The translations under genes and the position numbers were made by a program. A stretch of 62,545 bases of DNA, counting the filler. It is 12 parts of 12 records of this genome, joined end to end, with 100 filler letters (N's around TTAATTAATTAA, not from the genome) between each part and the next. Parts side by side here need not be neighbours in the genome. Positions count along the whole stretch, not along the records: positions 8,175 to 11,932 come from SRR7504441_18668; 11 more parts are not named here. One strand, 5' to 3'. Within the stretch, counting starts at the first letter, position 1. Every line of letters begins with the position of its first letter. Below are positions 2,130 to 42,017 of the stretch, piece by piece. Below the pieces are notes generated by a model. That model was not told the origin of the DNA. It saw only the letters and a program-made list of their open reading frames with translations, and did not search any database.

Positions 2130-3877
2130 ATGGGGAGAGGCGGGGCGCCGGGAGACATGGCAACGCCAAGGGAAGGTGCGTCGAGGCCCTGGTTCTCTGG
2201 CGAGAACGTGGAGCGGCTCCCCGAGCGGCTCCCTGGGCTGGGCGACGGCAGCGACTCATTCCTCGTCCGGATCCTCAAGAAGCCGATGGAGGGCGGCAGG
2301 GGGACTGACCACGCCTGGGGCACCTCAAACGACAACCCGCTCTGGCGCCGGTGCGTGTGCGAATTTGTGCTGACCTTCCTCTACGTGTACATTGGCTGCG
2401 GCGCCTCGATGACCAACGTGTCAGCCGGGCCGGCCGGGCGTGACCGGTGTGCAGATGGAGCCTTACTGGACATATGACGTTTCGGGCAATACGAACTGGT
2501 GGGTCACCGCGTCTCAAGCCGGCACCTGCGACATCATCAACCTGAACGCACAGCACAACTACTACCAGTGCACCCCCGAGAACAATCAGCTCTCTGGTCC
2601 CGGCCCACCCCTCAGCCGGCTCAGCGCTCGCAGGTGACCAATCCGCGGAGTGGGCACACCTGACGGCCAACACCAACGCCAACCCGCGCACCTTCGAGGT
2701 CGCGCTCGCGTTCGGGCTCGCGGTGCTGGCGCTGGTGACCGCCGGCTGGAAGATCTCGGGCGGTGAGAACCCTGGTGGTGATCGGCTCACGGGATTGACA
2801 GGACATTTCAACCCCGCCATTACCACCGCGTTGATGGTCTCGAGGCACTGCCCGGTGCGCCCGGCCCGCCACCGACGTGACTGAGTGCGTCGTGCAGCTG
2901 ATCGACGGTGCGTGCTACATCTTTGCTCAGGTGCCGTTCGTGCTTTGGGCTGTCGACTGATTGACTGGGTGCGCAGTTCTGCGGAGCAGTGTTTGGGGCC
3001 TCGATGCTGGCGGCGATGGTCCCGTCGGCCAAGTCTAACCCGGACAACTTTGCGACAAACTATGTGCGGCCGCGGCGCTGACTGGAGCATGAGCCGGAGG
3101 CAGGTCCGCGATGGCTTCACGCTCTTCGAAGGCTTTTTCGGCGAGCTGATCATGACATTCATCCTCATGTTCGTGATGTACCACGTGGCCGTGTACGACA
3201 ACGGCAAGAACGCCGACCCCAGCAACGACTCGTCTGCCAACAAGATGGCCAACGACCTCGGTTTCCCGCACAACTGTTGCTCGATGCTGAAGGACAAGTG
3301 GCCCGAGCCCGGGCAGCGGTCCGAGAAGGCGGCCGCCCGGCCCGATCAGAGCTACTACCCGCGCGAGCGGATGACAGTTTGGACGGCTAAAGTGCATCAG
3401 TGGACCGCAATTTGCCTCGGATTCACGGTGGCTGCCTCTGTCGATTGGCTAACAGGGGAGGGGGCAGGTCTACTGCGCTTACTCCGTCCTGCTCCCGATC
3501 ACGGGGTGCTCGATCAATCCGATGCGCTCGATCGGGGCTCTGGTAGTGGGCAATGTTCGAGGGATGCCTAGCTCAAAGCCGAGCGAACAAATCTGGATCT
3601 TCATCATTGCGCCAGAGTGCGTGCAGCTGCCATAACGGTCGGCTGACCGGAGGGCAGGCTGGCGGCTGTCGGGGCGGCGCTGATCTACCCGTTGCTGTGG
3701 AAGAAGGATGCCAAGCTCTGGGCTTGTACCGAGAGCTATGGCATGGAGCAGTCTCCTATCAGTCCTCAATCGGCCGAGCCCCATGTGGACCCCCCGGAGC
3801 TGCAGATCGAGACCGGCGCTGTCGAGGCTCCCGCGAGTGGCCACGGAGACTTTGGTACCGATAAGGAACAAGAATAG
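2130..3877 (+). CDS. Aquaporin (MIP family), tandem paralogue, at least 9 exons
   Basis: The spliced frame gives CEFVLTFLYVYIGCGAS, VALAFG, SGGHFNPAIT, GELIMTFIL, TGCSINPMRSIG, WIFIIAP. Introns are 37-46 nt, e.g. 2418-2454, 2763-2801, 2931-2976, 3064-3103. The start could be 2130 or 2157. Confidence 0.9.
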
Positions 3878-4157
3878 ATTACGATGCATTATTTTTGAGT
3901 TTGTCACGGTTTGCCTGCAGCGGGCCTGAGAGCTTTGCAGCTGACGTCGACTGATTACGAGCACTCAGTATACACCAGCATTAGCTTAGCCGAGTGTATG
4001 GTATAAAGCCTTTTAGAGTGTATGGTTACGTCTGCAGGCATTCTCTCGCACGGTCAGGAGCGTGTGTCAGGCGGGTTGACGTCCACTGATCAGTCTGATC
4101 TGTTTGACCGCAGCGCCACGCTGACCGGTGGGAGCTGGCCCCTCGGCGCCCACTGCG

Positions 4158-5417
4158 ATGCGGCGGTTGGTGTGCCGCTTGGGCCGTCGAGGCGCGTGCT
4201 CCCAGCCGCCGTCGGCCGCCCCCAAATTCGTCTTCGTGGGTGGCAAAGGCGGCGTCGGCAAGACCACCACGGCGGCGGGGCTGGCCTGGAGCCTGAGCCG
4301 GACTCAACGGACGCTGCTCGTCTCAACAGACCCGGCGCACAGCCTGGCCGACTGCCTATACGGGCACGACAACGATGACCCTGCCCCTGGGGAGCGCCCG
4401 GCCGTCGAGCGGAAGGACCTCAGCGCCCCGGTCCTCGCGTTTGATGAAAGCACCAACCGGCGCCTCTGGGCGTGTGAAATCTCGCCGCAGCGCGCGCTCC
4501 AGGAGCTCCAGGACGGGCTGCAGTTGGACAAGCTGTCCAGCCTGCCGCTCTTCCAGCGGCTGCCGCACGGGCAGCAGCAGCAGCTGGCCGGGGCACTAGG
4601 GGCGTTGAACCTCGCTGAGCTCTTCGACCCACCCCCACCTGGGATGGACGAAGCCGCCGCGCTGGCCAGCCTGCTCCAACTGCAGGCGCGTAACCAGGCG
4701 GCCGCGGCCCGCGGGGAGGCGCCGCTTTATGAGGCCATCGTTGTGGATACCGCTCCCACAGGACACACTCTACGGATGCTTACGTTGCCCCGATTGGTAT
4801 TCGGCTCGCTATCAATGTTGGGATCCATGCTGGGCGGGCTGGACAAGCCAGAGAGCTCGGGCTGGGCCATGTTCAGCAACCCAGCGGCAGCGGTGCGCGA
4901 CAGGCTGGCGAGCACCGTCCGGGGGCTGGTTGGGCTGGACGCTTGGACCGCTGCAATCGGCCAAGCTGAGGCCAAAGTGAGTGAGCTGTCAGCCCGGCTG
5001 GAGGAGCTCCAACGGATGCTCAACGACCCCTCGTGCGCCCAGTTTGTGGTTGTGGCACTCCCCACGCGGTTGGCAGTGCTCGAGACGCGACGGTTGGTGG
5101 CGGAGCTCAGCTCTCGAGGAGTGGAGATGGCGGGTGTGGTGGTTAATCAGATGCCAACCGATGGGATGCCCACCGCAGAAATGGCCCAGCTGCAGGGGCC
5201 TGGCCCGGTGCTGCAGGCTGTGAACCGGCTGAACGCTCAGCAGCGGCAAGGGTTTGAAGAGGCTGAGAGGCACTTGGGGGCGATTGCGGACGCGCTGGAT
5301 GAAAAGACGCAGCTCGTGCAGGTGCCGGTGATCAACGAGCCTGTGTGTGGGCCCCATGGAATTCCGGTGTACGCCCAGCACCTGAGCGGGTTTCTGGACG
5401 CCTCTGGGGCAAACTAA
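4158..5417 (+). CDS. GET3/ArsA-family ATPase with Arg-rich N-terminal extension
   Basis: GGKGGVGKTT P-loop, STDPAHSL switch I, PPPGMDE, DTAPTGHTLRML switch II, ETRRLV and VVVNQ. Single ATPase domain, intronless. Confidence 0.9.
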   Translation: MRRLVCRLGRRGACSQPPSAAPKFVFVGGKGGVGKTTTAAGLAWSLSRTQRTLLVSTDPAHSLADCLYGHDNDDPAPGERPAVERKDLSAPVLAFDESTNRRLWACEISPQRALQELQDGLQLDKLSSLPLFQRLPHGQQQQLAGALGALNLAELFDPPPPGMDEAAALASLLQLQARNQAAAARGEAPLYEAIVVDTAPTGHTLRMLTLPRLVFGSLSMLGSMLGGLDKPESSGWAMFSNPAAAVRDRLASTVRGLVGLDAWTAAIGQAEAKVSELSARLEELQRMLNDPSCAQFVVVALPTRLAVLETRRLVAELSSRGVEMAGVVVNQMPTDGMPTAEMAQLQGPGPVLQAVNRLNAQQRQGFEEAERHLGAIADALDEKTQLVQVPVINEPVCGPHGIPVYAQHLSGFLDASGAN

Positions 5418-8074: not shown

Positions 8075-8174
8075 NNNNNNNNNNNNNNNNNNNNNNNNNN
8101 NNNNNNNNNNNNNNNNNNTTAATTAATTAANNNNNNNNNNNNNNNNNNNNNNNNNNNNNNNNNNNNNNNNNNNN
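8075..8174. other. Artificial contig-joining spacer (first of 11)
   Basis: N44-TTAATTAATTAA-N44, with stops in all six frames. Identical spacers start at 11933, 19077, 25217, 28711, 37473, 40739, 44004, 47474, 50616 and 56794. Confidence 0.98.
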
Positions 8175-11100
8175 GCGCACAGCAATGAATCGCTGCTCGT
8201 CCCGTTCGCACGCCATATTCACGGTTCGGCTCAATCGGGGAGTGGACACCAATGAGAAGTCCAACTACTTCCACTTCATCGATCTGGCTGGATCAGAGTC
8301 GATTGGAGCCAACGAGGGCAGCAAGAGGTGCCAACCGTCAGGGCGGCGGATGAGCCGTTGTGCAGGGTGGCCGAGGCTCAAGCCATCAACAAATCACTCT
8401 CAGCACTCGCAAATGTATTTGTACAGCCCAGGCGTGCGGCATAACACATGTTGACAGGTGATCACAGAGCTCGTCCAGAGCGCCAATGGCAAAAAGTGCC
8501 ACGTGGGCTACCGTAACTCCAAATTGACGTTTCTCCTGCGTGAATCGCTCAGCGGCAACTTCACCACGAGCATCATCTGCAACGTCAACCCCACCATAGC
8601 ACACAGTACGGAGACCTGGGCGACTCTCAAGTTTGCCAAGCGGGCCAAGCAGGTGGTTTTGCCATGTGGCCAGTGCTGAACACTCGGGCTCGTGCCAGAT
8701 GGAAGTCATGCGGCCATCTGCGCAGTCAAAGCGCACTAAGTCCGCGATCGCAAGCTCCAAGAAACGGGCACTGACTGAACTCTCTGAGACATCTGCAAAC
8801 ATCTCGCCAGGAAAGCGGGCCAAGAATGCCACCGATGGCAATGCAAGTGCACCTGCGCGAAAATCCAAGCGAAAGGCAGAATTCGGCCACGTGAAGGCCA
8901 AGGTCTGCTCACCAGTCCGCGCCTTATTATTGAGAGCATGATCAGGTGGACACACAAGAGCCTGTGACCTCATTCACAGAGCCGAAACCAGTCTCCACAG
9001 TTCGCTGGGTAAGGAGTACATCTGAAGAAGAAGCCGAAGGACTAGAAGTTGATGAATTGTTGGCACTGAAGTTGACTGCTGCAACCAAGGGTCGTGGTGG
9101 GCTTGATGACAAGTTGCGAGTCGAAGAACGTGCCAAATTGGCCCAATTCTTGAAGAATCGGATCCGTCGGTTCCACGCAGAGAACAACGCCATCAACACT
9201 GAGCACGATGAGGTGTCTGGTCGATGGTCACGGCTCAAAAATTTGCTTTGTGCAGGCAGTCGATGTGATACAGAAGCAAATCGAAGAGCTGGAAGCGCAA
9301 GGTGACCAAGGCTCAAACAATAGTTGCTTGACCTGCTTTCTGGTGCAGTTGCTGAGCTGAATTCCGAGATTCAGAGCGCTACTCTCTCACGAGACGCAGC
9401 TAAGGCCGCTGAAGCGCAGTGGCGCAAGGATCGCACCGAAGAAGAGCGGAAGACTGGTAAGGCGGAGAAACGGATTGAAGAATGTGCTGGAGAGATCAGT
9501 AAGACACAGGCGGTTCAGAAAACGCAGGCAGAGACCCTAAAGGCAGTCAATGAGGAAGTCAGCGAGGCTCAGGCACGGCGTGCAGACGTGCAAGGAATGG
9601 TCGACAAGCTCGAGGACTACAGTAATGGGCTTCAAAACTTCAACAGCAAGCTGCAGGGTGACGTCGAGCGCATGAACAAGGCAGTAGAAGAACTCTCCGC
9701 CGAGCTTGGTGTGCTGCAAGGGGAGACATCGGCTGTGCAGAGTCAGGTGGATCAGACCACAGTGATTGTCGACTCCATGAATCAGAAATTTGTGGCGCTC
9801 ACCGCACAGAAGGAGGCTGCCGAAGCCCAGCAGCAGCAGTTCAGGGCTTCCATTGAAGAAGTGACTGCTGCACTGGAATCCGAGAACAAGCGACATGCAG
9901 AGCTGGGAGATGAGCTGTCTACCTTGACCAACGCTTGCTGGTCCACAGGAGAAGAATATGAGACACTCAAAGCGAAAATGCAGCAACTTCAAGCAGAGGA
10001 CGTGGCTCAGGTCGAGGTGTTGACTGAGGTTGGCAGGGAGCTAGAAGTCCATCGGGCTCGGATGAAGTTGGTGGACGAGTCTGCTCATGAAAGGGCACTA
10101 TCACTCCAGGCAATGGAGGCGAGGCTGACTGAGAGTCGAGCGACTGCTGCTAGCCTCGAGAATGATATCACGGAGGGAGAACTCTGTCGGAAGCAACTAC
10201 ACAATACTATTCTGGAAATGAAAGGTAACATTCGGGTATTCTGTCGGGTCCGGCCAATGACTTCTGCTGAGTCTTCCAACACACCACCCATCACAATTCC
10301 TCCGGCTGAAACTGATGAAACTGCAGAAGAGGTCAATCGAGCAATCAAGCTCCAGTTTGAGCGTCCAAATGATGGTCGGAAGCAAGACCACACCTTCAAC
10401 TTCGATAGAATTTTTGGGCCGACTTCATCACAGCCCGAAGTATTTAGTGAGATTTCGCAGCTTGTGCAGTCAGCGCTCGATGGGTTCAAAGTTTGTGTGT
10501 TTGCCTATGGCCAGACTGGCAGTGGCAAGACGTACACCATGGTTGGGGGTGACCAACCTGAGGCCCGGGGAATGATACCCCTTTCAGTGGAGCAGATTTT
10601 CGACACGGCACGCAAGCTCCGACTTAGGGGATGGGAGTTCAAAATGGAAGCCTCGTTCCTCGAGATTTACAATGAGACGATCAGGGACCTACTGAATGCG
10701 AATTCTGGTCACAAGCTGGAGATCAAACATAGTGCCAATGGCGCCACAACTGTGACGCATCTCAAGACTGTGGAGATTAGTTCAATGGAACAAGTGCAGC
10801 GGGTGATTGATAAAGCCAACAGCAATAGGGCTTGCAGCGCCACGAATGCGAATGCGCATTCGTCTCGCTCTCACTCTGTATTCTCACTGCAGCTGCATGG
10901 CCAGAATGAAAGCACGGCACAGGAGTCTCATGGAATTCTGCACCTTATTGATCTTGCTGGATCTGAGAGACTGGCACACTCTGGTGCAACAGGAGACAGG
11001 CTGAAGGAAACCCAAGCCATCAACAAAAGTTTGAGCTGTCTTGGTGATGTGATCAGTGCACTAGCGAGGAACGAAACTCACATTCCGTATCGCAACTCAA

Positions 11101-11261
11101 AGCTTACATATTTGCTTCAAAATTCCTTGGGTGGAGACTCAAAAACTTTGATGTTTGCCAATCTCAGCCCTGCACTGGAGTCAGCATCTGAGACCCTCTG
11201 CACCATGCGGTTCGCATCCAAGGTGAATGCTTGTGTAAATGCAACTGCACACAAGCATTAG
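8175..11261 (+). CDS. Kinesin with partial N-terminal motor, basic linker, coiled coil and complete C-terminal kinesin-14 motor (5'-truncated)
   Basis: Motor 1: [48 protein letters not shown]. Motor 2: [53 protein letters not shown]. Introns 8328-8365, 8415-8457, 8653-8698, 8903-8945, 9213-9255, 9302-9348. The kinesin-14 part is certain; the fusion depends on intron 8653-8698. Confidence 0.8.
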
Positions 11262-11814
11262 CTGCCAAGCTGCCCCGACATGATCGCTATGATCATTTAC
11301 CACAAATTACAACAACATCATGCACAATACGCATACAATCATCGGATTGTGTGCGTAGTATATCTCATGGCCAGCGCTCGTGTGACACACATAGACTCAC
11401 AACTACATACAGTACACGACATTGTACTCGTAGCGTACACTATAGTTAATTAAATTACAGGAGCCAACACTAGATCCAAGATTGGAATTGAGTACAGAAA
11501 CTACAAAAGTATTACAAAAGTAGAGACATTTGTTTTTTGAATTTTAGCTTTAATCAATTGCATGCCGTTGAATATGACTTGTAGGCTACTTGTAGGCATT
11601 GTACATAGTAAGTTGCATTGCACTCTTTTTGCACTCTTTGATCATGAGTTGCATTACATAATCTTGTATAATCATGTTATAATCATGTACCGGTACAATA
11701 GCTGCTTGTATTTTAGGCCTATGCATGCATTCAATCTTCAGGGTATCTAAGATGGTCGTACATGTATCGCTGAACCTTAGCTGAACCTGAAATCTTGTCC
11801 GGTTGCACAAGTTT

Positions 11815-11876
11815 GTGCCTCTGGTATGTCTCTGGTATGCCTCTGGTACTGTATGCCTCTGGTATGCCTCTGGCAT
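11815..11876. repeat. Short tandem repeat of an 11-bp unit (GCCTCTGGTAT), about 5 copies
   Basis: gtgcctctggtatgtctctggtatgcctctggtactgtatgcctctggtatgcctctggcat. Confidence 0.85.
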
Positions 11877-11878
11877 AT

Positions 11879-11932
11879 AGTAGTGAGTACCTACTCTGTC
11901 CTAATTCTATCCGTTGTGAGCGATCCCCACCA
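11879..11932. repeat. Dispersed repeat at a contig end, copy 1 (inverted copy at 47574-47627)
   Basis: agtagtgagtacctactctgtcctaattctatccgttgtgagcgatccccacca matches the reverse complement of the start of contig 10 with about 3 mismatches. Confidence 0.85.
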
Positions 11933-14203: not shown

Positions 14204-17200
14204 TTACAACCTATTGACATGATCAAATGTTATCGGTTCGTAGGATGATTCATAGTCGCATTGAAACAACACCAACTCTGGGTTGCATTCACTCAAACTT
14301 GCGTCGAATGCGCTTGTTTGACCGCGTTGTCGAAACTGCCTAAGACCACGTAGAAAGGCGATTTGTAAAGCAATGAGGATCGCGAACAATACTAGGGGGC
14401 CTGTCCCAAATTCGAGATCGATCATGATAAACGCCACCATGATCCAGGACAACACCAAAACCAGCACCCTGAATAATGTCAGTGGCGCCTGAACTAGCAC
14501 ATTATGCGCCAAGAGCGCTCCAAATGAGTCCTGATCAAGCAAACTGCACCAGCGACAAGCGCAAATTTGCACCCACACAATGACAGGCATCAAGAGTAAC
14601 AGCGGGGGCACTAAACTCCCAAAGGAGCTCATCAAAAGTAGGGTGGTGAGCAGGTTGGCAAGTTCCTCTTGCGTTTTGAACGCTGCCCTGTGCGTCTCTA
14701 TACATGTCTCAAGACGCGCCGGGAGATTGACATCGTCAGTGCTATCCCGAGGACCCTTGCAGCGCTTCCAGATGCCATCGAGCTTGCTCATTAACCGCTG
14801 AACAAGCGGCAATTTGAGCGCGAGCCACCTCGTTGGGCTCATGAAGCCAGATATCAGCACGGACTGGAGCCACACATAAGTATATTCCGTCAGTAGTTTG
14901 CGAGAGCAAAAGCCGTAACGATAGGCATCGAAGCCTGTTACTCCGATACCCCAGGTAGAAAGCAATTGGGCTAGCTTGCTATCAAATTTGAGATAATAGC
15001 GGAGACAGCTCTCGTCAAGCAGAAAAACCACAATGAGTGGGGCGATGATCACTGTGGTCGTTTTGATTGCTACAGCTGTGTGAGCTTGAAGCTTATAGTA
15101 CCGAATGAGATAGGGTGAGCTGACTGGTGCCCCAACTTTGATACGGTATCTGATTGCTGCCAGCTTGGCAGTGACTTGGGGTGTAATCACAGAAGTGATT
15201 AAGAGGCTGATGAGTGTGATAAACAAAGAACTCCGGCACAAGTCTGTGAAAATATTACTCTCTGGTGTGTTGATGGCCAAAATGTAAGCACAAGCTGGGC
15301 ACGAAGCCAGAATTACTACCGGTATATGGGCCAGGTAATATAGCAGAATGCACCACCAAGACTGGCTTCTACGAACAGTCTCATCCAGCACACAATCGCG
15401 ATGCCAGGCGCTCACAGCTCGCTGAGCACCACTCGATTTGTCTGTGCACCACTCGTCCAGGAAGACAAGAAACCGCTCGGCCTTGGCAGAATGGCCTCGT
15501 CCAGCCAACCCTTGGGCCAACATGACGACCACGAATGAAACTAGTGATGCCAAGACGACGAACGAGTAACTGTAAGTGTCCTCCGGTAGGATTGGAATGT
15601 GTGTAGTGTCGATCAAGGGTTCACTGCAACCGCCATCGGTCTTATAAATATTTTCTGCCCAAGAATTCAAATAGATGAGCGCCATGCCCAGGACAGCAAG
15701 AACCAGCGCAACAATTCTTGTACTACTGAACTCCAGTGTATAAAGCAATACCCCAGTCAGGGGATCGGCTCTTCTATCAGCGCTCTTAATTTGCGTGAAG
15801 GGCTGAAGGTAGGTGGCTAGGCGAGTCAAGAATCTCGAGCCTTGCTGCCGAGGCCAGATGACCACCAAAATAGTGCCAAGATGAGCAAGAAGAAGCGTTG
15901 GTAGCAGAAGCCATAACACCATCTTGAAGTCGCTGTGTCCTGAGAATAGCCCATGCCTACCACGACGGATACGATCCGTCGTGAGAAGATTGCCAGCCTG
16001 CGTCGGTGGCAGATAAGCCGCCTCAGCCGTGAGGGCAGGGCACCCACTGAATGCCAAGGCAATCGAGACGAGCCTCAACTGCTCAACACCCTCAAAGGGA
16101 TCCACCTTCATTGATAAGACAGTTGCTCCTGACGCGGCGTGATATACGGGCACTAAAGCCACTGTGAAATCGGCTATGTTGTCATCGACAGTCCTCTTCA
16201 TGGCGTAGCGTGCAGGCTCGAGAAAAGTGCCCGTCCCAAGGTCTATGGCAGAGTCTAGAGCGGGTGCATTGCACGAGAAGTAATTGCTGCTCAACAGAAG
16301 TGTCTGGAGCTGGTCTGCACCTTCTAGCACGGTGGTCCTACCTCGAAGGTAGTTCCTAGCAAGGCTCAGGGTGCGCAACAAGCTAGAATTGCTTCGCCTC
16401 GAGGCGGTCCAGCTCGGTATCGTGCCAGAGAGCCTCAGCCCGTTGGCTAAAAGCGTTGTAAGGTTTGCCAGCTGATTGAACAACTGCGATGGCAATGTCC
16501 CACTTAGGTCTTGGTTGTCAGAAAGTACCAGTGTGATTAGACCCGGCGTACTATTGAAAAGGCTCGAAGGAATCGTCCCCGAGATTTTGTTTCCATTCAG
16601 AAGGAGGGTCTCGAGGCTGGATAATGAGAGCGCGTTGGGCAAAGTTCCCTGAATCCCACAACCCTGAAACAGCGCTGTATGCAGTGACTGATATGAGCTC
16701 AGAAGCTGCAGATCCCAGTCTAGTGAGGGGTTGTTGAACAGCGAGAGGAGCTCGAGATTTGTCCAGCTGCTGTTAAATGAAGGTGAACTTGAGCCCTCTA
16801 AGGAGTTGCCTTGAGCAGCGAGGTGCTTAAGATTGGTCAGGCCGCTCAGGCTGGGTGGAAGTGATCCACTAATCCGATTATAGGCAAAGTAACACCCCGA
16901 CACGTTCAGTAAACTGCCCATTGTCTTGGGGAGGGTGCCCGTGAATTGATTCTGAGCGAGCCCTAAGTTCTTTAGACTTGCTAACTGCCCGATGCTGTCT
17001 GGGATGCCACCACTTAGGCTGTTCCGGGTCAAATGGAGTTCACCGAGCCCCTCGAGGGCACCAAGGGTTGGGGGTATGGTGCCCGAAAAGTGGTTGGACT
17101 GTAGCAGCAAGGTCACAAGACGCGTAAGCGAGGTCAAACCTGGTGGAATACTTCCTCTCATAGAATTGTTTGCTAGTGCCAGTCGATCCATGCACGGTGC

Positions 17201-18500
17201 TTCGCCAAGGCATTGCAGACATGCGTCGCGCTGTATGTCACTGTGCTGATAGTACTGGCATTCCGGACATTCCTGAGATGAAGACCGTCCACATTGGGTT
17301 GTTGAAAGAGCAAGGTTGCCAATATTTTTAGGGATTGTTCCACTGATCGCCATGGAATTCAGAACCAGGCGCTGAAGTTGCGGCCAGGTGCTCACGTAGC
17401 CCGGAAACGTACCCGAAACTGGATTTTCGTGAATGTAAAACCACCACATGCTAGACAGCGAGGCGAATGAGTCTGGAATCGTGCCAGAGATTCTATTGCC
17501 ATTCAGCAAGAACTTGTTGATTCCCTCCAGCTGGCCTAAGCTTGCCGGCATGGTACCCGAAAGTCGGTTATTGTAAAACGATAAAGCCTTTCCCGACTGG
17601 GCTATGGTGATTGGATCAGCAATAATGTGTAAGTAACCGAGTGAGTCGGGGATCGTGCCACTGATTGCATTCTCATGTATGTAAAGGCTAACAAGCTTCG
17701 GAAGAGTGCCCAGTTCGCTAGGTATCGATCCTGACAGCCGGTTCGATTGCAAGTCTATCAGAGACGTGCCGTACAAGTGACCCAGCGTTTCTGGAATGCT
17801 GCCACTCAGCTTATTCCCGAAAAATCTGAACATCCGGACCGAGGCGAGATTGCCTAGACTGGATGGGAGCGTCCCGCTCAATGCGCTGTCGCTCATCCAT
17901 ATGTCCGATCGTAAGGAAGTGAGGTTGCCCAAGCTCGCTGGGAGTGTGCCGCGCAGCCCATTACTCCTCAAATCGAGCGTAACGATCTCTAGAGCACTTT
18001 GAGACGCCTGGCAGTCTATCCCGTACCAGCCTTTCCCTGCGCAGTAATCGGTACCACTGCACCAGCCATCGTTCCTTTCCCAACCGGCCCCGCCTGCACA
18101 CCACACACTGTCACGCGAATGCCTGGGGCCGAGGGAGACCGGTGGCGTTGTACAGCTCGACCAGCACCGGGCACACCGGGGGCTCGACTCCAAAGCTCTC
18201 GGTGCACTGACAGCCTTCAGTGGGTGGTGCGCTGGGGGCTGAAGTGGGCGGATCAGTGACTCCGCCACCACAGGCACAGCACACTTCTGCTGCCGTGTAG
18301 CCCCCCGAGCCGGCGCTGCTGCCGATTGGCTGGCTGCAGAAGCGATTCGGATTTCGGCCGAAGAAGGTACAGTCCCGGGAGCGGCCTCTGCTGCCCTGCA
18401 CGGACCACGGCTCCCCCCCGATCTCGAGGTCGACGCACGCGGCCGCCGCGCGCCACAGCAGTAGCCCGAGCAGCCGTGCAGGACTGCGCAGGCCTTGCAT
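14204..18500 (-). CDS. Signal peptide + Cys module + plant-type extracellular LRRs + multi-pass TM domain
   Basis: The first exon has a signal peptide and TAAEVCCACGGG. Intron 18094-18139 joins LVELYNAT|GGAGW...WYGIDC (LRR N-cap). About 20 LxxLxLxxNxLSGTIP repeats and about 10 hydrophobic segments follow. No kinase motifs. Confidence 0.85.
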
Positions 18501-18578
18501 TCCGGCTGAAAATCAACGGAACAGCTCCGTTCTCCAATTTTTCACACAAATGGCTCCCGTGTGACAAGGCCATCTGAG

Positions 18579-19076: not shown

Positions 19077-19218
19077 NNNNNNNNNNNNNNNNNNNNNNNN
19101 NNNNNNNNNNNNNNNNNNNNTTAATTAATTAANNNNNNNNNNNNNNNNNNNNNNNNNNNNNNNNNNNNNNNNNNNNACCACTTGGCCCAGCCCGAACCCG
19201 CACCGCGAGTGAGTCCAC

Positions 19219-20811
19219 ATGCTGCGACGCGGTGCACGTGCGGTGGCCTACGGCTGCACGGGGCTGGGCTGCGCGGCGGCTGGATTCGTGGCGTGGGACC
19301 CCGGGCTGCGCCGCGAAGCTGAGTTTTGGTACTTCGCTGGTCCTGTGGCCGCCCGCTACCTGGCCGTCCAGTACACCCACTCGGAGGAGGCTGCGCCCGG
19401 GCGGTACGAGGACCTGCACCGGCTGTACGCCCCGCGGGCCCTGGAGGCTATCCTGGCGCTGAGGGGGCTGTTCATCAAGTTTGGCCAGACCTGCAGCGCC
19501 CGTCCAGAGCTGGTGCCCGAGCCATACAGGCTGGCGTTCGAGCAGCTGCAGTCGGAGGTGCCGGCGGTGGACCTAGGGGCGATCCATCAGACCATCGAGC
19601 GCGAGCTAGGACCGGTGGATGGGCTGTTCTCGAGTCTGGAGCCCACTCCGTGCGGCGCCGCCTCGATCGGGCAAGTTCACCGGGCGGTGGCACTCGACGG
19701 CAGGCAGTTGGTGGTCAAGGTGCAGTACCCTGGCATCCGGGAGGTGTTCGAAGCCGACCTGCGGTCCATCCTGACGCTCGTGTGGCTGGCGCGGCCGAAC
19801 TCGGTGCCGAGCTTTACAGAGTTTGCGAGACAAATCAGACAGGAGCTCGACTACAGGCGCGAGGGCGAGCAGCTCGCGGAGGTGTACCGGGCCGTGATGC
19901 CCAAGTACGGCCGGCAAGTGGCTGTGCCCGAGATTGTGCCGGCGTATTGCTCGGAGAGCGTGCTTGCAATGAGCTTCTTGCCTGGTCGCTCTATCAGCCA
20001 GGTGGCTGGAGGGCTGCAGGCAGCTGGAGTAGACTTGCCCAAGAACCGTGCCGCCATACGAGAATGGGTGGCGCAAGAATCGCCCGAGCCACCCAAGCTG
20101 AGTCACTGGCAGCTGAGGCTGCTGCAGTGGGTCGGGCCTGATAGGGCACTGAGCCTGTGGCGCAGCGTCCAAAGGCTTCATCTGGCTGCGCTGCGAGTGG
20201 CGGTGTCGTTGATGGGATCCGTCCTGCGTCCAGCCGACTGGAGCTGGCTGAGCAGCGCCCAGCGGACGATCTCGCAGGCGGATGCAGCCAGCGCTGCTCG
20301 GGCTATGGTGGAGACCCTTGTCAAAGTGGTTGGCCATCAAATGTTTAGCAACCACGGGTTGTTCCAGGCAGATCCACACCCCGGCAATATCTTGGTGCTG
20401 CCGGATGGCCGCCTCGGCCTCATCGACTACGGCCAGTGCAAGCGGCTTTCAGCAGCTTCGCGGAGGAAGCTCGCACGGCTTGTGCTTAGTGTCGCAGAGC
20501 CGACCGCATCGGATGAAGAGGTGGCGGGCGCTTTTCGGGATTTGGGTCTAGTTACGAAGAACGACGACGACGCTTTCATTGCCAGCTTTGCGCGGCTGAT
20601 CTTTGGCAAAGTGACAGCTCAAACACTAGACAGAGGCTGGCACAAGCAGCTGCATCAGCGCGACTCAGTCCAGACTTTCCCGCCGGATCTGATCATGGTG
20701 ACGCGGACTGTGGGCTTGCTTCGAGGCGTTGGGCTGATGCTCAAATGCAATCCGGGAGTAGCTGAGGTTTGGCGATCCTCTGCTACAAGTGCTCTCCATG
20801 ATTTAACCTGA
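19219..20811 (+). CDS. ABC1/UbiB (ADCK) atypical protein kinase
   Basis: FIKFGQ, AASIGQVH, VVKVQYP, ELDY..E, QADPHPGN, LIDYGQ. Organellar-type N-terminus. Confidence 0.92.
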   Translation: MLRRGARAVAYGCTGLGCAAAGFVAWDPGLRREAEFWYFAGPVAARYLAVQYTHSEEAAPGRYEDLHRLYAPRALEAILALRGLFIKFGQTCSARPELVPEPYRLAFEQLQSEVPAVDLGAIHQTIERELGPVDGLFSSLEPTPCGAASIGQVHRAVALDGRQLVVKVQYPGIREVFEADLRSILTLVWLARPNSVPSFTEFARQIRQELDYRREGEQLAEVYRAVMPKYGRQVAVPEIVPAYCSESVLAMSFLPGRSISQVAGGLQAAGVDLPKNRAAIREWVAQESPEPPKLSHWQLRLLQWVGPDRALSLWRSVQRLHLAALRVAVSLMGSVLRPADWSWLSSAQRTISQADAASAARAMVETLVKVVGHQMFSNHGLFQADPHPGNILVLPDGRLGLIDYGQCKRLSAASRRKLARLVLSVAEPTASDEEVAGAFRDLGLVTKNDDDAFIASFARLIFGKVTAQTLDRGWHKQLHQRDSVQTFPPDLIMVTRTVGLLRGVGLMLKCNPGVAEVWRSSATSALHDLT

Positions 20812-21922: not shown

Positions 21923-22063
21923 TATATGGTGGCTTGCAATGTTTTGGTATACATGTACATACCATAGCCAACTTTATACTCGTACTCGTACTCGAACTGA
22001 GTTAGTCGTTGACACACTGGTGACTGGCCGCCGGCCGCCCCAAGTTGACTAGTACTGATACAG

Positions 22064-23878
22064 TCATGGCGGCGGGTCGGCTAGCAGGCTGGCGCTGGTG
22101 ATCTCATCGGCTTCTAGCAGCGCCTGCAGCAGGCTGAGGTGCTCTCTATTGGGCATCTTGTCCGCGAACGTCTGTAGGACCACGCTGCTGGCCACCGCCT
22201 TGGCGTCCATCCCGCTGTTTGGCTCGGCCACCACCCGGCGCCAGTGCTCCAGCAACGCCCCGAGCACCGCCCTGTTGGTCTCCGGCATCCCTCGCAGCAA
22301 CGTCAGCTGCATCCCCGGGCTGGCGGCTTTGACCAGCTTGTTGGCCGAGCCGGGCGGAATCAGCCCGCCTTGGAAGCCGGCGATCCACCGGAGCAGCACG
22401 GTCACCACGGTGTGCGAGCTGGTCTCTGGCTCAATCGGCAGCCGGCCCGACTGCTTCAAGCTCGCCTCCATCTGGTTGGCCTTGGCCCTATGCCCGCTCA
22501 GCCGCCACAGCCCCTCAGGCACCCCCGCCTGCTCTAGCCAGTCCAGGCTCTCGACCAGCCAGCTTGGCACTCGCCCAGCTCCAGCCTCCGCGTCGGCCGC
22601 CTCTCCGCCCAGCTGCAGCCCGTCGGTGTACCGGTCCAGTCGCGCCAGCTGCTCCCTGGCCAGCGCCTCGGCCAGCTGCTCCTCCAGCTCGGCCAGCCGC
22701 TGCTGCGTGTGCTGGTTCCTTGCGAGCTCAGCCTCGGCCTCTGCAAGCCGCTCCGTCCTGGCTTGGCTCCCGGCCAGCAGCTCCTCCAGCTCGGCCACCC
22801 GCCGCTCCAGCCGCGCCCGCTCGGCCAGACCGTCCTGCGCCCCGGCCAGCTCGGCCTCCAGCTCCGCTATCCTCCGGTTCAGCTTCTGCTCGGCTTGGCT
22901 CAGCTTGCCCAGATGCACCTGCGACTGCACTTGGCCCATCGCCTGCCGCAGCCGGGCCAGACTATTCTCCGTGCCCGCTCGTTCGGCCCGCTCACCCAGC
23001 TGGGCCTCGGCCTCCGCCAGCCGTCGGTTCAGCGCGGCTGCCTCCTCCGCGGCCTTGGCTTCGCGGTTCTCTGCTGCTGCCAGCCTCTGCCCGGCTGCTA
23101 TTGCCGCCTCCGCGCTCGCAGCTTCCCTCGCCTCGGCCTCGGCCAGCCGCCGCTCCAGCAGCCCATCCGCATCTATATTGGCAGCCTCCAGCTCGGCAAT
23201 CCTCTGCTGGAGTTTCTGCTCAGCCTGGCTCCACTGGCCTGCCTGCGACTGCACCTGGCCCATCGCCTGCCCCAGCCTGCTGCCCTCCGCTCGCTCACCC
23301 AGCTGGGCCTCGACCTCGGCCAGCCTCCGCCTGAGCACTATCACCGCCCCCGCGCCCTCTGCCTCCCTCGCCTCGGCCTCCGCCAGCCGCCGCTCCAGCA
23401 GCTCCTCCCTGGCGCTCACCGGCTCGTCCTCCTGCTCCAGCCAGCCCTCCTGGTCCACCCTCCGCCCCCCACCGCTCGGCTCGGCCTCCAGCTCGAGCAC
23501 CCGGCTGTACAGCGCCCCGCACTGCTCGCGCGCCCGCTCCCCGGCCGCCCGGCTCTCCGCCAGCGCCAACTCCAGCTCGACCAGCCCGTCGGGCAGCCCC
23601 GCCAGCTCGCGCTCCGCGGTGGCCAGCTGCCGCTCCAGCTCGTCCACCCGCCCCTGGAGCAGCTCCGAAGCGCCCAGCCGCTGCTGCATCTCCCCGATCC
23701 GCTGCTGCCGCTCGAACAAGAGCTCCAGCTCCAGGCCAGCCGCCTGCTCCCGGCCGGCCCCGTGGGCCTCGACAGCCTCCCGGAGCTCCACCAGGTCGAG
23801 CCGGGCGTTGGCCTCCGCCAGCCGGCCCTGCTGCATCAGCGCCCTGACCTCCGCCTCCACTGCGCGTTGCTCCAGCAT
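22064..23878 (-). CDS. Coiled-coil protein with C-terminal RhoGAP domain
   Basis: VPSWL..SLDWL...EGLWRLSG (arginine finger), HTVVTVLLRWI....GGLIP, MPETNRAVL..LLEH, SGMDAKAVA. The coiled coil contains an internal duplication of about 70-90 aa. Confidence 0.75.
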   Translation of the reverse strand: MLEQRAVEAEVRALMQQGRLAEANARLDLVELREAVEAHGAGREQAAGLELELLFERQQRIGEMQQRLGASELLQGRVDELERQLATAERELAGLPDGLVELELALAESRAAGERAREQCGALYSRVLELEAEPSGGGRRVDQEGWLEQEDEPVSAREELLERRLAEAEAREAEGAGAVIVLRRRLAEVEAQLGERAEGSRLGQAMGQVQSQAGQWSQAEQKLQQRIAELEAANIDADGLLERRLAEAEAREAASAEAAIAAGQRLAAAENREAKAAEEAAALNRRLAEAEAQLGERAERAGTENSLARLRQAMGQVQSQVHLGKLSQAEQKLNRRIAELEAELAGAQDGLAERARLERRVAELEELLAGSQARTERLAEAEAELARNQHTQQRLAELEEQLAEALAREQLARLDRYTDGLQLGGEAADAEAGAGRVPSWLVESLDWLEQAGVPEGLWRLSGHRAKANQMEASLKQSGRLPIEPETSSHTVVTVLLRWIAGFQGGLIPPGSANKLVKAASPGMQLTLLRGMPETNRAVLGALLEHWRRVVAEPNSGMDAKAVASSVVLQTFADKMPNREHLSLLQALLEADEITSASLLADPPP

Positions 23879-23983
23879 TTTTGACCCCAACGGAAGCGGA
23901 TCCGAGGCACACTCCAAGAATAGATCTGGGATCCGAGAGGCAGCAGCGGGCAGACAGGCTCGACAGCAGTGCAGCAGCGGGTC

Positions 23984-25216
23984 ATGGCGGTGGAGGAGGT
24001 CACCGGGCAGCTGGCGCTCAAGCACGCGTTCGGGTCCCGGGCCTGGATCTCGCGCGGGGTCGGCCAGGACCGGAGCCGACTGGTCTCTCCGGTGCATTTT
24101 GTGGAGGACAGCAGCCAGCTGCTATACTCTGTGGGCCGGCGGGTGGTGCTGCACAACCTCGACCAGAACCTGATGCGCTTCCTGCCCGAGAACCACAGGC
24201 TCGAGTGCGTGGTCTCGCTGGCTATCTCGCCCAACCAGAAGTACGCGGCGGTCTGCGAGCGAGTCTATCCGGAGACCGGCGGCCAAAAGTCGGTGCCGTC
24301 CTCACAGGTGTCGATCTACAACCTGCACGCGCCCACGCTCAAGCGGCGGTGCGTGCTCACCTACGCTGAGATCTCGATCAAAGACTGGAAGGGCGCCTGC
24401 TTCTCGGCCGACAATCACTTCCTGGCCGTCCAGTCCGGACCGCCAGACTGGCTGATTGTGATATGGAGCTGGGCGTCGCCCTCGGCCAAGGTGGTGGCCA
24501 CCTCCAGCGGACGGATCGACGCCAAAGGCTTCGAGGTGCTGCGGGTGGCCTTCCCAGCGCCCGACCGGCCGGCAGGTGTCCAAGCTGTCGTTTGCGCCAT
24601 TTGATAACATCTCGACTGTGCTGGCCGCATCCGGCCCGCGCACGCTCCAGTTCTACAAGCACACGGAGGGCGCGCTCAAGGTGTTCTCGGCCAACATCGG
24701 CAAGCGGGAGATGCCGGTCCTGACCGACCACGCCTACCTGAGCGACGAAGTGATGGTGCTCAGCACGGGAGCGGGTGACGTGTGGGTGCTGCTGGCTTTC
24801 GACCTCAAGGAAATCCTCACCTGCGAGTTCGGGGGCGGAGCTGCCACTGCTATTTCGGCGCTGCCGAATGGGTAGCCCGGTCAGTGGCGTGTTGTGAGCA
24901 GGGCGGCCAGGTTTGTGGTCGGGGGGGCGGGCGGCTACCTGTCAATCTATGAGAACCACGAGCGCAAGGAGCTCTTCCAGTGCTCGCACACATTCAGGTC
25001 GCACGCGCACCCGGACGTGGCGATCAGCGGGCTGGCCACGCTCCGCCAGAACGAGGATTCTGTCGCCTGCATGTTTGAGAATGACCAGGTTGCCGTGTTC
25101 CCGATGGGCCGGATGGACTACCTGGACGAGGATGCCGACCACTTCGTCTACGTCTCATCCGGGATGCACAACGGCCCGATCACGGGGATGGACGTCGCGC
25201 TCAACAAGCCTTTGAT
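23984..25216 (+). CDS. CFAP57: Cilia/flagella-associated WD40 protein CFAP57/WDR65-like, 5' part
   Basis: LKHAFG, LAISPNQKYAAVCE, FSADNHFLAVQSGPPDWLIVIWSW, HNGPITGMDVALNKPL. Micro-introns near 24536 and 24871. Confidence 0.8.
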
Positions 25217-29119: not shown

Positions 29120-31641
29120 TCAGTAGACCAGCCCTTGAAGACCTACACAGCTTGCGAGCGGGGTATACGTAGTGGTGCTAGTAATCTGCACTGAGCCCGA
29201 AAGGACGTTTGAGGGCGCCTTTGTGGGTTCATCGGGCTGCTGACCGCCCACAGACACCCGCACCGCTGCCGGCTCTATCACCCAGACCGGCGGGACAGGG
29301 GTAGCGTTGGCATACTTATGGTCTAGGTAAACGCTCTCGCTGGTGGAGGCGTTGTGCAGCACGGCCAGCTGGACTGGGCTCACTTGGCCCGGCTGGGAGT
29401 GTCACCTCGCGGGGCGAGATGCTCAGCTCGACTGTCTGCTCTTCACCAGGCCGGAGGAGCAGCTGGCCAACCACCCGGGTGAGCGACACAAGGCGCAGGC
29501 AGGGCGCCTTTTCGAAGGCAACCAGTTGTATCCTGGCAGTGGGCACCGTCACGTTGGCCCACTGCACATAGGCTTGCACCACCTCCGCTGCAGGCACACT
29601 GCCAATGTTGGCCACCTACACCCAGGCTCGGCGGACCCTCAGGCTATATCCGCACAGTCACGCTCAGATTGAGCCAGTCGCACGCGCGGATTGTGCTTGG
29701 AGCGCGCAGGTCTGAGTAGCTGAAGTTAGTGTACGAGAGTCCGAAACCGAACGGGAAGAGAGTGTTGGCAGAGGAGCCATACCTTGCCCCCCTGGCTGGC
29801 CGGTGGCGGGCGGAGCCCAGACACCTATAGGTGAGATCTGTCCCGAGCAGCTTGGCAGGCATGATTGCACAGCGGCCGGAGGTGCGTCCGGGATTATTTG
29901 GGTCAGGCACAATGCTACAGTTCCATTGCTTGGGCCAACTCATCGGGAGCCGCCCGCTCGGGACCAACCGGCCAAGCAGCGTTTCGGCGATTGCGGCCGC
30001 CCCGCCATTTTGTGGATAGTTTGCGCTGATCACCGCATTGGCCGCTTGCATCCACGGCCCGTTCTTAGGGCTTGTGGTGAAGAGCACCACCACAAACGGC
30101 TTTTTGAGCTCGACTGCCAGCTGCATCAGCGCACTCTGCTCCCCGGGAAGGCTGAGCGTGGCTCCGATCCCGTGATTCACCACCTCGCTCTCAATTTTCT
30201 CCCCAGTACCCACAAGGAACACGGCCACATCTGCCGCTTGCAGAGCCGCCCGCACCGCTCCAGCATCGACTGCAGTGCAAGCTGTGGTCGAGTTAGCGTC
30301 AACACACCCGGCCGTGCTTGTCACTAGCTGCCCACCGATCCGCTCAGCCAGCGCCTCGCCCACAGACACCCAGAGCGGGCTCCCGGGGGCCGGGTGGTAG
30401 GCGTATCTGTTGTACATCCAAGTGGCGTTGGTCATAGGCCCCACCAACGCGACCTTCGAGCGACTTGTCAGAGGGAGCAGCCCGTCGTTTCGGAGCAGCA
30501 CAAGCGACTGAGCAGCGGCCTCGTATGCCAGCTGTCGATGCGCCGGCGCCCCAACCACCCCACACCCGCCGGCCCGATCCCAGAAAGGGTTGTCGGCCGG
30601 GTCGTCGAACTCACCCAACAGAAAGCGCGGCAAGAGCGTTCTTCGGGCAGCATCATCCAGCCTATCGCTCCCAATCTCACCGTCGGCCAGCCACTTTTTG
30701 ACATCGTCAAACGAAGGGCTGCCCGATCCGAGGAATGTATCGCAGCCGGCCCCGAACGCAGCTGGGGAGTCCGGCTGGCGGACCGCGCCCTCGTCGCTGA
30801 TGAAAAAGCCGGGGAACTGGAGAGTCTGCTTGGCCAGACTGGTCAGGATCCGGTGGTTGATGCACGAGGCCGAGCCGGCGCCTCTGTCGGCGCTCGAGCC
30901 GGTGTTGCCATCGGTCGAGTACGAGCACATCAGATTGAGCGCTCCGGCCTCGATGCACCGCGCAAACCCCGGCAGGTAGGTTGAGAATAAATCATAGTCA
31001 GACGCGTGGCTCACCGCCGCTCCGTCGTACGGCACGTAGTGCTTGCACCCCCCGAACGCGCGGATGAATCTCCCGTCACCTTCGGCGTCACTGCGCATCC
31101 CGCTGATCACAGCGTGGGCAAACCGCCCGGTGAGGTATGGGTCCTCGGAATAAGCCTCCGAGTTTCGGCCCCACATTGGATCCCGGATGATGTTGATCAT
31201 CGGCGAAAAGCAGCTCAGCCCGATCCCGCGCGTCTCGTCCCCCAGCTGGGCCAGCGCGATCGCCCGCAGCTCGCGCCCGATCACCTGGCCCTTTAAAGTC
31301 TCCAGCGTGGTGTTGAAGCTGGCAGCCATCCCAGGGCTCTGCGGGAAGGCCGTCAGGTTCTCCGTAGCGCAGGTGACCCCTCGCTCCGGGCTCGGGTAGT
31401 GCCCGTTGGCGTACGCGCCCGAGTTGCACTCGACGTAGTAGATGTATGCCCGGATCCCGAGCCGCTCCACCGGGCCGGTCCTCGTCCCGAGCAGCCCGAA
31501 CTTCTCTTGGTCGGACAGGTTGTCGACCAGCCAGGCCAGCCGGTCGGCCAGCGGCAGGCTGGCGTTCCGGAAGGGCAGCAGCCCCGAGGCGGCGCCCAGC
31601 CAGAGCGAAACAAACAGTGCCCATCTCTTGAAGTCCCCCAT
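29120..31641 (-). CDS. Secreted GH3 beta-xylosidase/beta-glucosidase
   Basis: Signal peptide, FSPMINIIRDPMWGRNSEAYSEDP, CKHY, ISDEGA nucleophile, VLLRN, PSGRLP, FPFGFGLSYT. The Fn3-like tail is split by micro-introns. Confidence 0.92.
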
Positions 31642-31751
31642 TTTCGCCGCGTTTTAACGGCAGTTCTCGGCTCTGTCCCGTGGGCATGGCCTGGGGTGAG
31701 GAGGCAGCGGGTGAAAATAACAGCCCAGACATCTCCCGCACATCCGGGCCG

Positions 31752-32810: not shown

Positions 32811-33113
32811 GGTTTGCCTTGAATGTGGCTTATTATTATATTATGTGGCCGTGTGTCGAAATTAAACACGGTGCTCAGAGGGGGCACCTGTTCGCAAAGC
32901 CAGGTGAGCTTAAGCCTTGGTGAGCTCTTCGTAGTTGGTGAGGTTGAGCACGCCCGGACCACTCGATAGCACCACGGCCTCGCAGGAGCACGATGCCGAG
33001 CGGCCGAGGAAGAGCAAGTTCCCCTTCGATTGTTCATCGTTCCCGCCGCACCGCGTCCGCACAAGCTCCGGAAAAATTGGACGGGACGCCTCGGGGGGGT
33101 CGGCGTGGGGCCA

Positions 33114-41893: not shown

Positions 41894-42017
41894 CCCAGAC
41901 GACACGGTCGGGGTAGGCCACTGGCACCCCCACCCGCAGGAGCTAGGAGAGGCCCGCATTGTGGTGGTGCAGCAGCGGACACAGCGCCGGGTGTGCACTC
42001 GGCTGGTGTGCTGGCCG

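Follow-up and report, generated by a model that had tools for sequence, protein, structure and literature searches.

The window analysed here, 62,545 nucleotides in length, consists of 12 contigs (approximately 3–9 kb each) joined by 11 identical linkers, N44-TTAATTAATTAA-N44 (22 runs of N). The linkers separate different contigs, so that genes flanking a linker need not adjoin in the genome. One contig (positions 8175–11932, 3758 nt) carries a kinesin gene. Comparison with the predicted products of its relatives shows that the contig holds the 3′ four-fifths of a single gene and that the segment 8653–8698 is an intron and not an intergenic spacer. The gene, judged on these predicted products, appears to be a real single gene encoding one chain with two motors of different families, an N-type motor (motor 1) and a C-terminal kinesin-14 motor (motor 2). 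Because the 5′ end of the contig is cut at a linker, the first 60% of motor 1 is missing in the window, and its P-loop lies off the contig, as the initial annotation of this DNA had pointed out. The features of the contig are as follows; the relatives (P0001, L001, P0423, P0329) and the RNA runs (X1, X2, X6, X7) named here are described further below.

8075–8174, no strand: artificial assembly linker N44-TTAATTAATTAA-N44, 1 of 11 copies, marking the 5′ end of the contig.
8176–8327, + strand: exon 1, 5′-truncated; motor 1 from before switch I (NRCSSRSH) to switch II (DLAGSES); Pfam Kinesin, model positions 193–242 of 327, E 3.6e-10; collinear with P0001 and L001.
8328–8365, + strand: intron 1, 38 nt, GT-AG, phase 2; P0423 loses its frame at the matching residue.
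8366–8414, + strand: exon 2, helix alpha-4 region of motor 1, from translation and the alignment with P0001 and L001.
8415–8457, + strand: intron 2, 43 nt, GT-AG, phase 0; the P0001/L001 alignment has no insertion here.
8458–8652, + strand: exon 3, the final 65 residues of motor 1, ending in LKFAKRAKQ; Pfam Kinesin, model positions 266–326 of 327, E 4e-18; best solved match KIF15 (E 4e-16).
8653–8698, + strand: intron 3, 46 nt, GT-AG, phase 0, the junction of the two motor halves; contains the in-frame TGA 8677–8679.
8699–8902, + strand: exon 4, a basic tail rich in K, R and S with an opening Met; matches no Pfam family.
8903–8945, + strand: intron 4, 43 nt, GT-AG; run X2 has an RNA contig from which it has been removed.
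8946–9212, + strand: exon 5, with VDT.EPVTSF ... LKLTAA.K.RG.LDDK.RVEER, the start of the helical stalk; 66% identity to L001, without a Pfam family, helical in the structure model of L001; the segment is also present in the fragment P0329.
9213–9255, + strand: intron 5, 43 nt, GT-AG; collinear with P0001 and L001.
9256–9301, + strand: exon 6, stalk, from translation and the P0001 alignment.
9302–9348, + strand: intron 6, 47 nt, GT-AG, phase 1; weak RNA joint in run X7.
9349–10172, + strand: first part of exon 7, a long helical stalk, presumed coiled coil, with modelled helices at exon 7 residues 2–95 and 135–290; its Pfam matches are weak and of coiled-coil type only.
10173–11261, + strand: second part of exon 7, with the kinesin-14 neck, motor 2 in full at the C-terminus, and the stop codon; Pfam Kinesin, model positions 1–326 of 327, E 2e-112; PF16796.
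11262–11467, + strand: AT-rich 3′ untranslated region (UTR); RNA contigs of runs X1, X2 and X6 extend to 11380–11467.

Joined by the six GT-AG introns of 38–47 nt, the seven exons translate as a single stop-free frame of 941 codons (2826 nt, from 8176 to the stop codon at 11259–11261), which encodes, in this order, the C-terminal 40% of motor 1, the basic tail, the helical stalk and the full kinesin-14 neck with motor 2. The introns, the frame and the motifs quoted in the initial annotation, DLAGSES included, were all found where it had placed them. With intron 3 retained, the frame ends at TGA 8677–8679 and ATG 8699 comes 19 nt later. The GC content is 0.40 over 11262–11932. No AATAAA was found in the kinesin contig, and a scan for prokaryote-type promoters and terminators was uninformative. 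The missing 5′ part of motor 1 was on no other contig of the window (tblastn), and an Rfam scan of the whole window gave 0 matches.

A search with exon 3 alone (65 residues) against longer proteins led to P0001, the sole close match to this exon in that search (83% identity). P0001 is a protein of 1177 amino acids (aa) from a Logan contig of 3684 nt, has two Pfam Kinesin stretches, and is collinear with all six splice junctions of the window without insertion. Its identity to the spliced product of the window is 78% in the C-terminal half of motor 1, 56% in the tail, 57% in the stalk and 81% in the neck and motor 2. JGI metagenome contigs scanned with P0001 yielded one locus, L001 (3742 nt), which is 82% identical to P0001 across residues 8–1177; a separate scan of genome contigs with P0001 gave no match. 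In L001 a leader of 54 nt precedes the ATG (nt 55), and the stop codon (3655–3657) is followed by an 85-nt trailer with AATAAA. The frame of L001 is broken once, 29 codons past the start, by a 51-nt GT-AG segment (141–191) with an in-frame TGA, and since the removal of this segment restores the alignment with P0001, the segment is a retained intron. The full product is approximately 1180 residues long in both relatives and comprises a short N-terminal extension, the N-type motor 1, approximately 100 basic residues predicted to be disordered, a helical stalk of approximately 320 residues, the neck and the kinesin-14A motor 2.

At the junction, the window spliced from 8652 to 8699 reads KRAKQ followed by MEV, and P0001 reads KRAKQ followed by MEI. 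In L001 the junction is again KRAKQ and MEI, with the residues directly adjacent in frame. The single polypeptide with two motors proposed in the initial annotation is thus borne out by two full-length, independent relatives that read through, with the junction at the predicted 8652/8699 splice. L001 may also inform on splicing: P0423, a gene call of 132 aa from an ENA contig 4728 nt long, matches L001 at 61 of 64 residues and then goes out of frame exactly at the position of window intron 1, where L001 has no intron. As this near relative has intron 1 in its DNA and L001 does not, L001 looks like a nearly fully spliced message, and we infer from this, not from library information, that it is RNA-derived.

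The window's own gene had RNA matches in metatranscriptomes of marine and seawater origin, several made with poly-A selection, and RNA contigs were examined from four of the 24 matching runs listed (X1, X2, X6 and X7). Intron 4 is spliced out in one contig of run X2 (flanks of 85 and 76 nt, 0 mismatches) and intron 6 in one contig of run X7, weakly, as the short flank is just 22 nt. Contigs of three runs continue past the coding region into approximately 200 nt of AT-rich 3′ UTR. As the junctions are collinear with P0001 and intron 4 (and, weakly, intron 6) is spliced in RNA, the six-intron frame is not a product of chance.

Two further relatives are fragments. P0329 (JGI, 229 aa, from a 1079-nt contig) covers the tail and stalk of a fourth relative, with 53% identity over 213 residues. 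P0184 (EukProt, 650 aa, labelled complete) begins within the stalk near window introns 5 and 6 and is uninformative on the fusion. P0329 crosses the positions of window introns 5 and 6 unbroken and loses its frame after FNSKLQ, where the window is intronless, which suggests that intron positions differ among the relatives. Nearest named relatives of either motor share just 55–61% identity, Protein Atlas placed P0001 in generic kinesin-14 clusters only, and on these comparisons there is apparently no sequenced reference species close to the source organism.

Judged by its predicted features, motor 2 is a textbook kinesin-14A, and kinesin-14 proteins (Kar3, KIFC1 and Ncd, 290–335 bits) make up all of its best solved matches. 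In a quick maximum-likelihood tree of 44 motor domains, in which most other kinesin families are missing and from which ten fragmentary or multiply split rows were left out (three from Brassica, two from Acorus, two from an ENA protein, one from Pythium and two from Binucleata), motor 2 stood within a kinesin-14 clade of 13 rows with a support of 99 in the Shimodaira–Hasegawa-like approximate likelihood ratio test (SH-aLRT), few other families being in the tree. The clade includes kinesin-14-type motors of Arabidopsis, Physcomitrium, Spizellomyces, Dimargaris and Phytophthora. Motor 2 ends 9 residues ahead of the stop codon, i.e. it is C-terminal, and is preceded by the neck (LHN, RP), whose residues H284, G292, R295, V296, R299 and P302 are invariant in all 60 aligned kinesin-14 sequences, window included. 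In the AlphaFold2 (AF2) model a long helix reaches residue 290 of exon 7, and at 294 motor 2 opens with its first strand, in a fold with a high predicted local distance difference test score (pLDDT). Solved matches, clade and invariant neck uphold the kinesin-14 assignment of the initial annotation.

The two halves of the protein were folded separately, each with its own alignment, because nearly all rows of a full-length alignment piled onto motor 2. Between the motors, AF2 places stalk helices at residues 467–535 of L001 and at residues 2–95 and 135–290 of exon 7, in all approximately 320 residues, helical with one low-confidence break. A complex prediction for two copies of the stalk scored 0.02 and was not used as evidence. 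Exon 4 is the least conserved part (51% identity to L001), and its counterpart in L001 is predicted to be disordered (pLDDT < 50).

Motor 1 is whole in P0001 and L001 and lies 45 residues from the N-terminus. The initial annotation had cautioned that a degenerate P-loop would turn it into a passive binding domain; the P-loop GQTGSGKT is intact in both relatives, and switch I (NRCSSRSH) and switch II (DLAGSE) are present in the window, P0001 and L001. The Pfam Kinesin matches of exons 1 and 3 exceed the gathering score, and the AF2 model of the L001 motor has a pLDDT mostly > 90. Foldseek returned 355 matches at E ≤ 0.001, with KIF15 (chain 6zpi_C, template modelling score 0.91) at the top, and all 41 printed matches were kinesin motors or kinesin-containing complexes. 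With phmmer against solved structures, KIF15 scored 216 bits and the next family 186, a gap of 30 bits. Plant KIN-12 proteins and a Phaeothamnion kinesin (55–57% identity) are the nearest named relatives of exon 3. The similarity to KIF15/kinesin-12 noted in the initial annotation thus stands at the level of best matches, and motor 1 may be called KIF15-like as a resemblance, not as proven membership of kinesin-12. The nearest short relatives of its C-terminal half (50% identity) are P0322–P0325, of approximately 480 aa, from JGI, Logan and ENA; these are small N-type kinesins with the P-loop GPTSTGKS instead of GQTGSGKT.

Of the two motors, for which the initial annotation had recommended separate phylogenies, the tree placed motor 2, as described, and left motor 1 unplaced. 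Forcing motor 1 together with 14 kinesin-12-like rows changed the log-likelihood by +0.13 (approximately unbiased test, p-AU 0.505) and was costless, in a tree with few families, and on this evidence its place in the kinesin-12 clade is neither shown nor rejected. The canonical layout of kinesin-12, a neck linker followed by the motor's own long coiled-coil stalk, was not found. Among 152 relatives, 73 have the motor end F..RAK plus at least 12 further residues, and 63 of these 73 continue with the neck-linker start x-[IVL]-x-N, which occurs in none of the three fusion proteins. All three go on with QME[IV] and then a basic serine-rich run. In the L001 fragment the 98 residues past the final motor helix (344–441) have a pLDDT < 50, and stalk helices begin only afterwards; neither a neck linker nor a neck coiled coil is recognisable after motor 1.

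In a comparison of the window with L001, saturation is seen at synonymous sites (proportion of synonymous differences, pS, 0.73–0.87). The proportion of nonsynonymous differences (pN) is 0.143 in motor 1, 0.115 in motor 2 and 0.23–0.34 in the stalk and tail. Given the similarly low pN, selection holds motor 1 with about the same strength as motor 2.

The direction of a kinesin is set by its neck and not by its catalytic core. Plus-end stepping of N-type kinesins depends on docking of the neck linker, and their two heads are coordinated by a neck coiled coil; in the kinesin-14 family the stalk forms a parallel dimer, and the basic tail needs no ATP to bind microtubules. One chain carries motors at both ends in P0001 and L001, with a helical stalk modelled between them, and a two-ended oligomer is putative. 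The stalk would dimerise the chain as in other kinesin-14s, giving two minus-end-directed heads at one end. The far end would then carry two ATP-hydrolysing motor 1 heads together with the basic tail, in place of the passive tail alone of Ncd and KIFC1, and the molecule could serve as a two-ended spindle cross-linker and slider. Through motor 1 this attachment at the far end would come under nucleotide gating, being tight in some states and released in others. As the canonical neck linker is absent and approximately 100 disordered residues follow, plus-end stepping of motor 1 against motor 2 is no more than putative. The missing linker and the long flexible tether lead us to expect an anchor that goes through ATP-regulated cycles, or at most a weakly biased, uncoordinated head, and not a hand-over-hand plus-end walker.

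As to origin, the junction intron lies exactly between the end of motor 1 and the start of a standard kinesin-14 tail, and its first following codon is ATG (Met) in the window (8699–8701), in P0001 and in L001. The simplest history would be a fusion of two neighbouring genes in which the intergenic spacer turned into an intron. The Met that opens exon 4 would then mark where the kinesin-14 gene once started; alternatively, it may function as an internal start. The long stem branch of motor 1 fits rapid change after the loss of its own stalk.

Taken together, a single chain with a gated far-end anchor, formed by gene fusion, is in our view the likely account. Several observations weigh against it. 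The 8652/8699 splice was unseen in the RNA of the window's own organism, no RNA contig lying over 8301–8804 in the four of 24 runs, a gap that weighs neither for nor against the splice. P0001 and L001 are short-read contigs, and the RNA status of L001 is itself our deduction. The GC content at third codon positions (GC3) drops from 0.73 in motor 1 (8176–8652) to 0.51 in motor 2 (10173–11258), as a chimera could give. In the free tree the three motor 1 sequences group together (100) on a stem as long as 1.1 changes per site, somewhere among the N-type kinesins and not placed within the kinesin-12 clade. Motor 1 has RVRK against RVRP in the first strand of motor 2, and SGN against GGN in the consensus of its relatives, and with these substitutions its full activity is not certain. 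Dimerisation, ATPase activity, microtubule binding and polarity are all predictions from sequence.

Two separate, packed genes in the window's organism, the first running to TGA 8677–8679 and the second from ATG 8699, with a coincidental GT-AG frame between them, would accord with the stop and the ATG that do exist 19 nt apart and with a junction unseen in RNA of the four runs. However, two relatives at 56–81% identity read straight through the junction, which makes this arrangement very unlikely in the window too. The 46-nt segment also matches the other five introns in size and in its GT-AG ends, and the initial annotation was right that no AT-rich 3′ region follows 8679: nothing there resembles the at least 200 nt of AT-rich UTR at the gene's true 3′ end. 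An assembly chimera of two unrelated kinesin genes, which the short contig (3758 nt), the fragmented assembly and the GC3 step between the halves might suggest, is scarcely credible. The layout recurs in three independent assemblies from three different organisms, which for practical purposes excludes both a chimera and a chance frame, and with them the misassembly that the initial annotation had named as a threat to its reading; the introns are of the same size class on both sides of the junction. The GC3 step of L001 runs in the same direction, from 0.52 to 0.44. The locus might alternatively give two products, the fused chain and, from an internal start in or near intron 3 or at Met 8699, a kinesin-14 lacking motor 1. 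The Met is the first codon after the junction in all three orthologues, ATG 8699 directly adjoins the splice acceptor, and the conserved Met leaves room for such a short isoform with motor 2 only. We nevertheless regard this as unlikely: the long form is the one present in L001 and P0001, no start of a transcript was observed (RNA contigs cannot show one), and the conserved Met is equally explicable as a relic of the fusion.

Other alternatives concern what motor 1 does. The initial annotation proposed 'antagonistic heads' of 'probably opposite polarity', i.e. a plus-end motor 1 and a minus-end motor 2, with opposed heads at the two ends of a dimer. On antiparallel microtubules both ends would move in the same spatial direction, giving travel without sliding; on parallel microtubules they would pull against each other and slide the filaments, push them apart or lock them, the reverse of kinesin-5 logic. 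If true, a heteropolar kinesin might replace the kinesin-5/kinesin-14 balance in the spindle of this lineage. Such a molecule would suit a motor 1 that is of N-terminal type, closest to KIF15, intact in its catalytic motifs and strongly constrained, a motor 2 with a full kinesin-14 neck, and the position of both at opposite ends of a helical stalk of approximately 320 residues. As worded, however, the proposal is not supported: the neck-linker start is absent from all three fusion proteins and present in 63 of 73 relatives, the approximately 100 disordered residues before the first helix leave no neck coiled coil to coordinate the N-terminal heads, and, by the rule given above, it is the neck rather than the core that sets direction. 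We consider a heteropolar walker somewhat unlikely, if worth keeping in mind. Conversely, motor 1 could be a decayed pseudo-motor retaining only microtubule binding, like the motor-homology domain of Vik1 and Cik1, whose head is not known to have a nucleotide site. The missing neck linker, the odd residues RVRK for RVRP and SGN for GGN, and the long stem branch would all fit decay, yet both full-length relatives have an intact P-loop, switch I and switch II, the constraint equals that on motor 2, and a passive binder would not need intact nucleotide motifs. Decay thus seems quite improbable to us, and a nucleotide-gated anchor is the role we prefer for motor 1.

Kinesins as a rule have one motor domain per chain, and two-ended cross-linkers are built by tetramerisation (kinesin-5) or with a passive second microtubule site (kinesin-14 tails, KIF15). 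With kinesin-14A (Ncd, KIFC1/HSET, Kar3, plant ATK/KIN-14) the present protein shares the C-terminal motor, a neck helix running into the motor, a long helical stalk and a basic N-terminal tail; unlike them, the fusion chain has a complete second catalytic motor of another type before the tail. Motor 1 resembles kinesin-12 (KIF15/Xklp2, plant KIN-12) in its N-terminal position and in an insert before the HV.YR.SKLT motif, but differs in having neither a canonical neck linker nor its own stalk and in its long stem branch. Kinesin-5 (Eg5) is described as a bipolar homotetramer with motor pairs at both ends of its rod that cross-links two microtubules (PMC3978770). Motors at both ends of a central rod are common to the two, whereas kinesin-5 uses four identical single-motor chains of one polarity and the fusion has two unlike motors per chain; because of this, a plain dimer of the fusion chain, which is itself predicted, would already be two-ended. 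In Kar3-Vik1/Cik1 a kinesin-14 is reported to work with a second, motor-like microtubule-binding head (PMC3544905), and the title of PDB entry 4etp is 'C-terminal motor and motor homology domain of Kar3Vik1'. In that pair the second head belongs to a separate chain and lies at the same end of the coiled coil; in the fusion, by contrast, the second head shares the chain, lies at its far end and has all nucleotide motifs.

A HMMER search with motor 2 covered 1.84 billion representative proteins, and 16 of the 150 listed matches have at least two matched stretches. A Pfam scan of six of these multi-stretch matches, together with P0001, found two Kinesin stretches in P0041, P0088 and P0163, seven in P0034, and one in P0158 and P0120. 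Named two-motor gene models besides the fusion are those of Achlya hypogyna (P0088, OQR84285.1), Paulinella micropora (P0041, g52421.t1), Danionella and Cordylochernes. Like the fusion, they have two Pfam Kinesin stretches per predicted chain. In all four, however, the paired motors are each other's nearest relatives in the tree, near-identical in Danionella and Cordylochernes, and these models represent tandem copies of one motor type or artefacts of annotation or assembly, with no supporting transcript seen. Among the two-motor models found, an N-type paired with a C-type motor occurs only in the present predicted fusion proteins. With the full-length query, only P0001 among the best 120 matches covers both halves, and the next covers 55%. 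In the literature, parts of the surveys PMC2867816, PMC8950801 and PMC1434745 included, we found no natural two-motor kinesin chain; their supplementary tables could list such models.

Two of the other models have layouts of their own. In Achlya hypogyna (P0088) tandem KIF15-like motors lie at 42–376 and 567–902, which could stem from a real internal duplication or from a merged gene model. The Paulinella micropora protein (P0041, 2283 aa) has two sister motors followed by RA, zf-MYND, PDZ and MyTH4 domains.

The present protein places an N-type and a C-type motor on one stalk, and both catalytic sites have stayed under selection in at least three related marine protists. It offers a natural experiment in the setting of direction, since motor 1 combines an N-type core with the lack of a neck linker, in load sharing by two unlike ATPases in one molecule, and in how a spindle can be organised by another set of motors. 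It could be compared directly with engineered kinesins that are bidirectional or two-ended. The gene may also be a clear example of fusion through the conversion of an intergenic spacer into an intron.

The window is heterogeneous in composition. The kinesin contig has a GC content of approximately 0.52 and tiny introns, and contigs at, for example, 22001–24000, 33001–34000 and 42001–43000 have a GC content of 0.65–0.72 and long uninterrupted frames; this may reflect either compositional compartments in one genome or a bin of mixed sources. Other contigs of the window carry eukaryote-type genes. Long frames lie at 50866–55092 (− strand), 14204–18541 (− strand), 4125–5417 (+ strand), 19213–20811 (+ strand), 29644–31653 (− strand) and 47928–49181 (− strand). 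Protein Atlas placed the DNA polymerase of one of these contigs in generic polymerase clusters only. This polymerase, of family B and 1408 aa long, has a C4 zinc finger; the remaining frames code for a leucine-rich repeat protein of 1445 aa, an ATPase of the ArsA/GET3 type, a protein resembling ABC1 kinases, and glycoside hydrolases from families 3 and 65.

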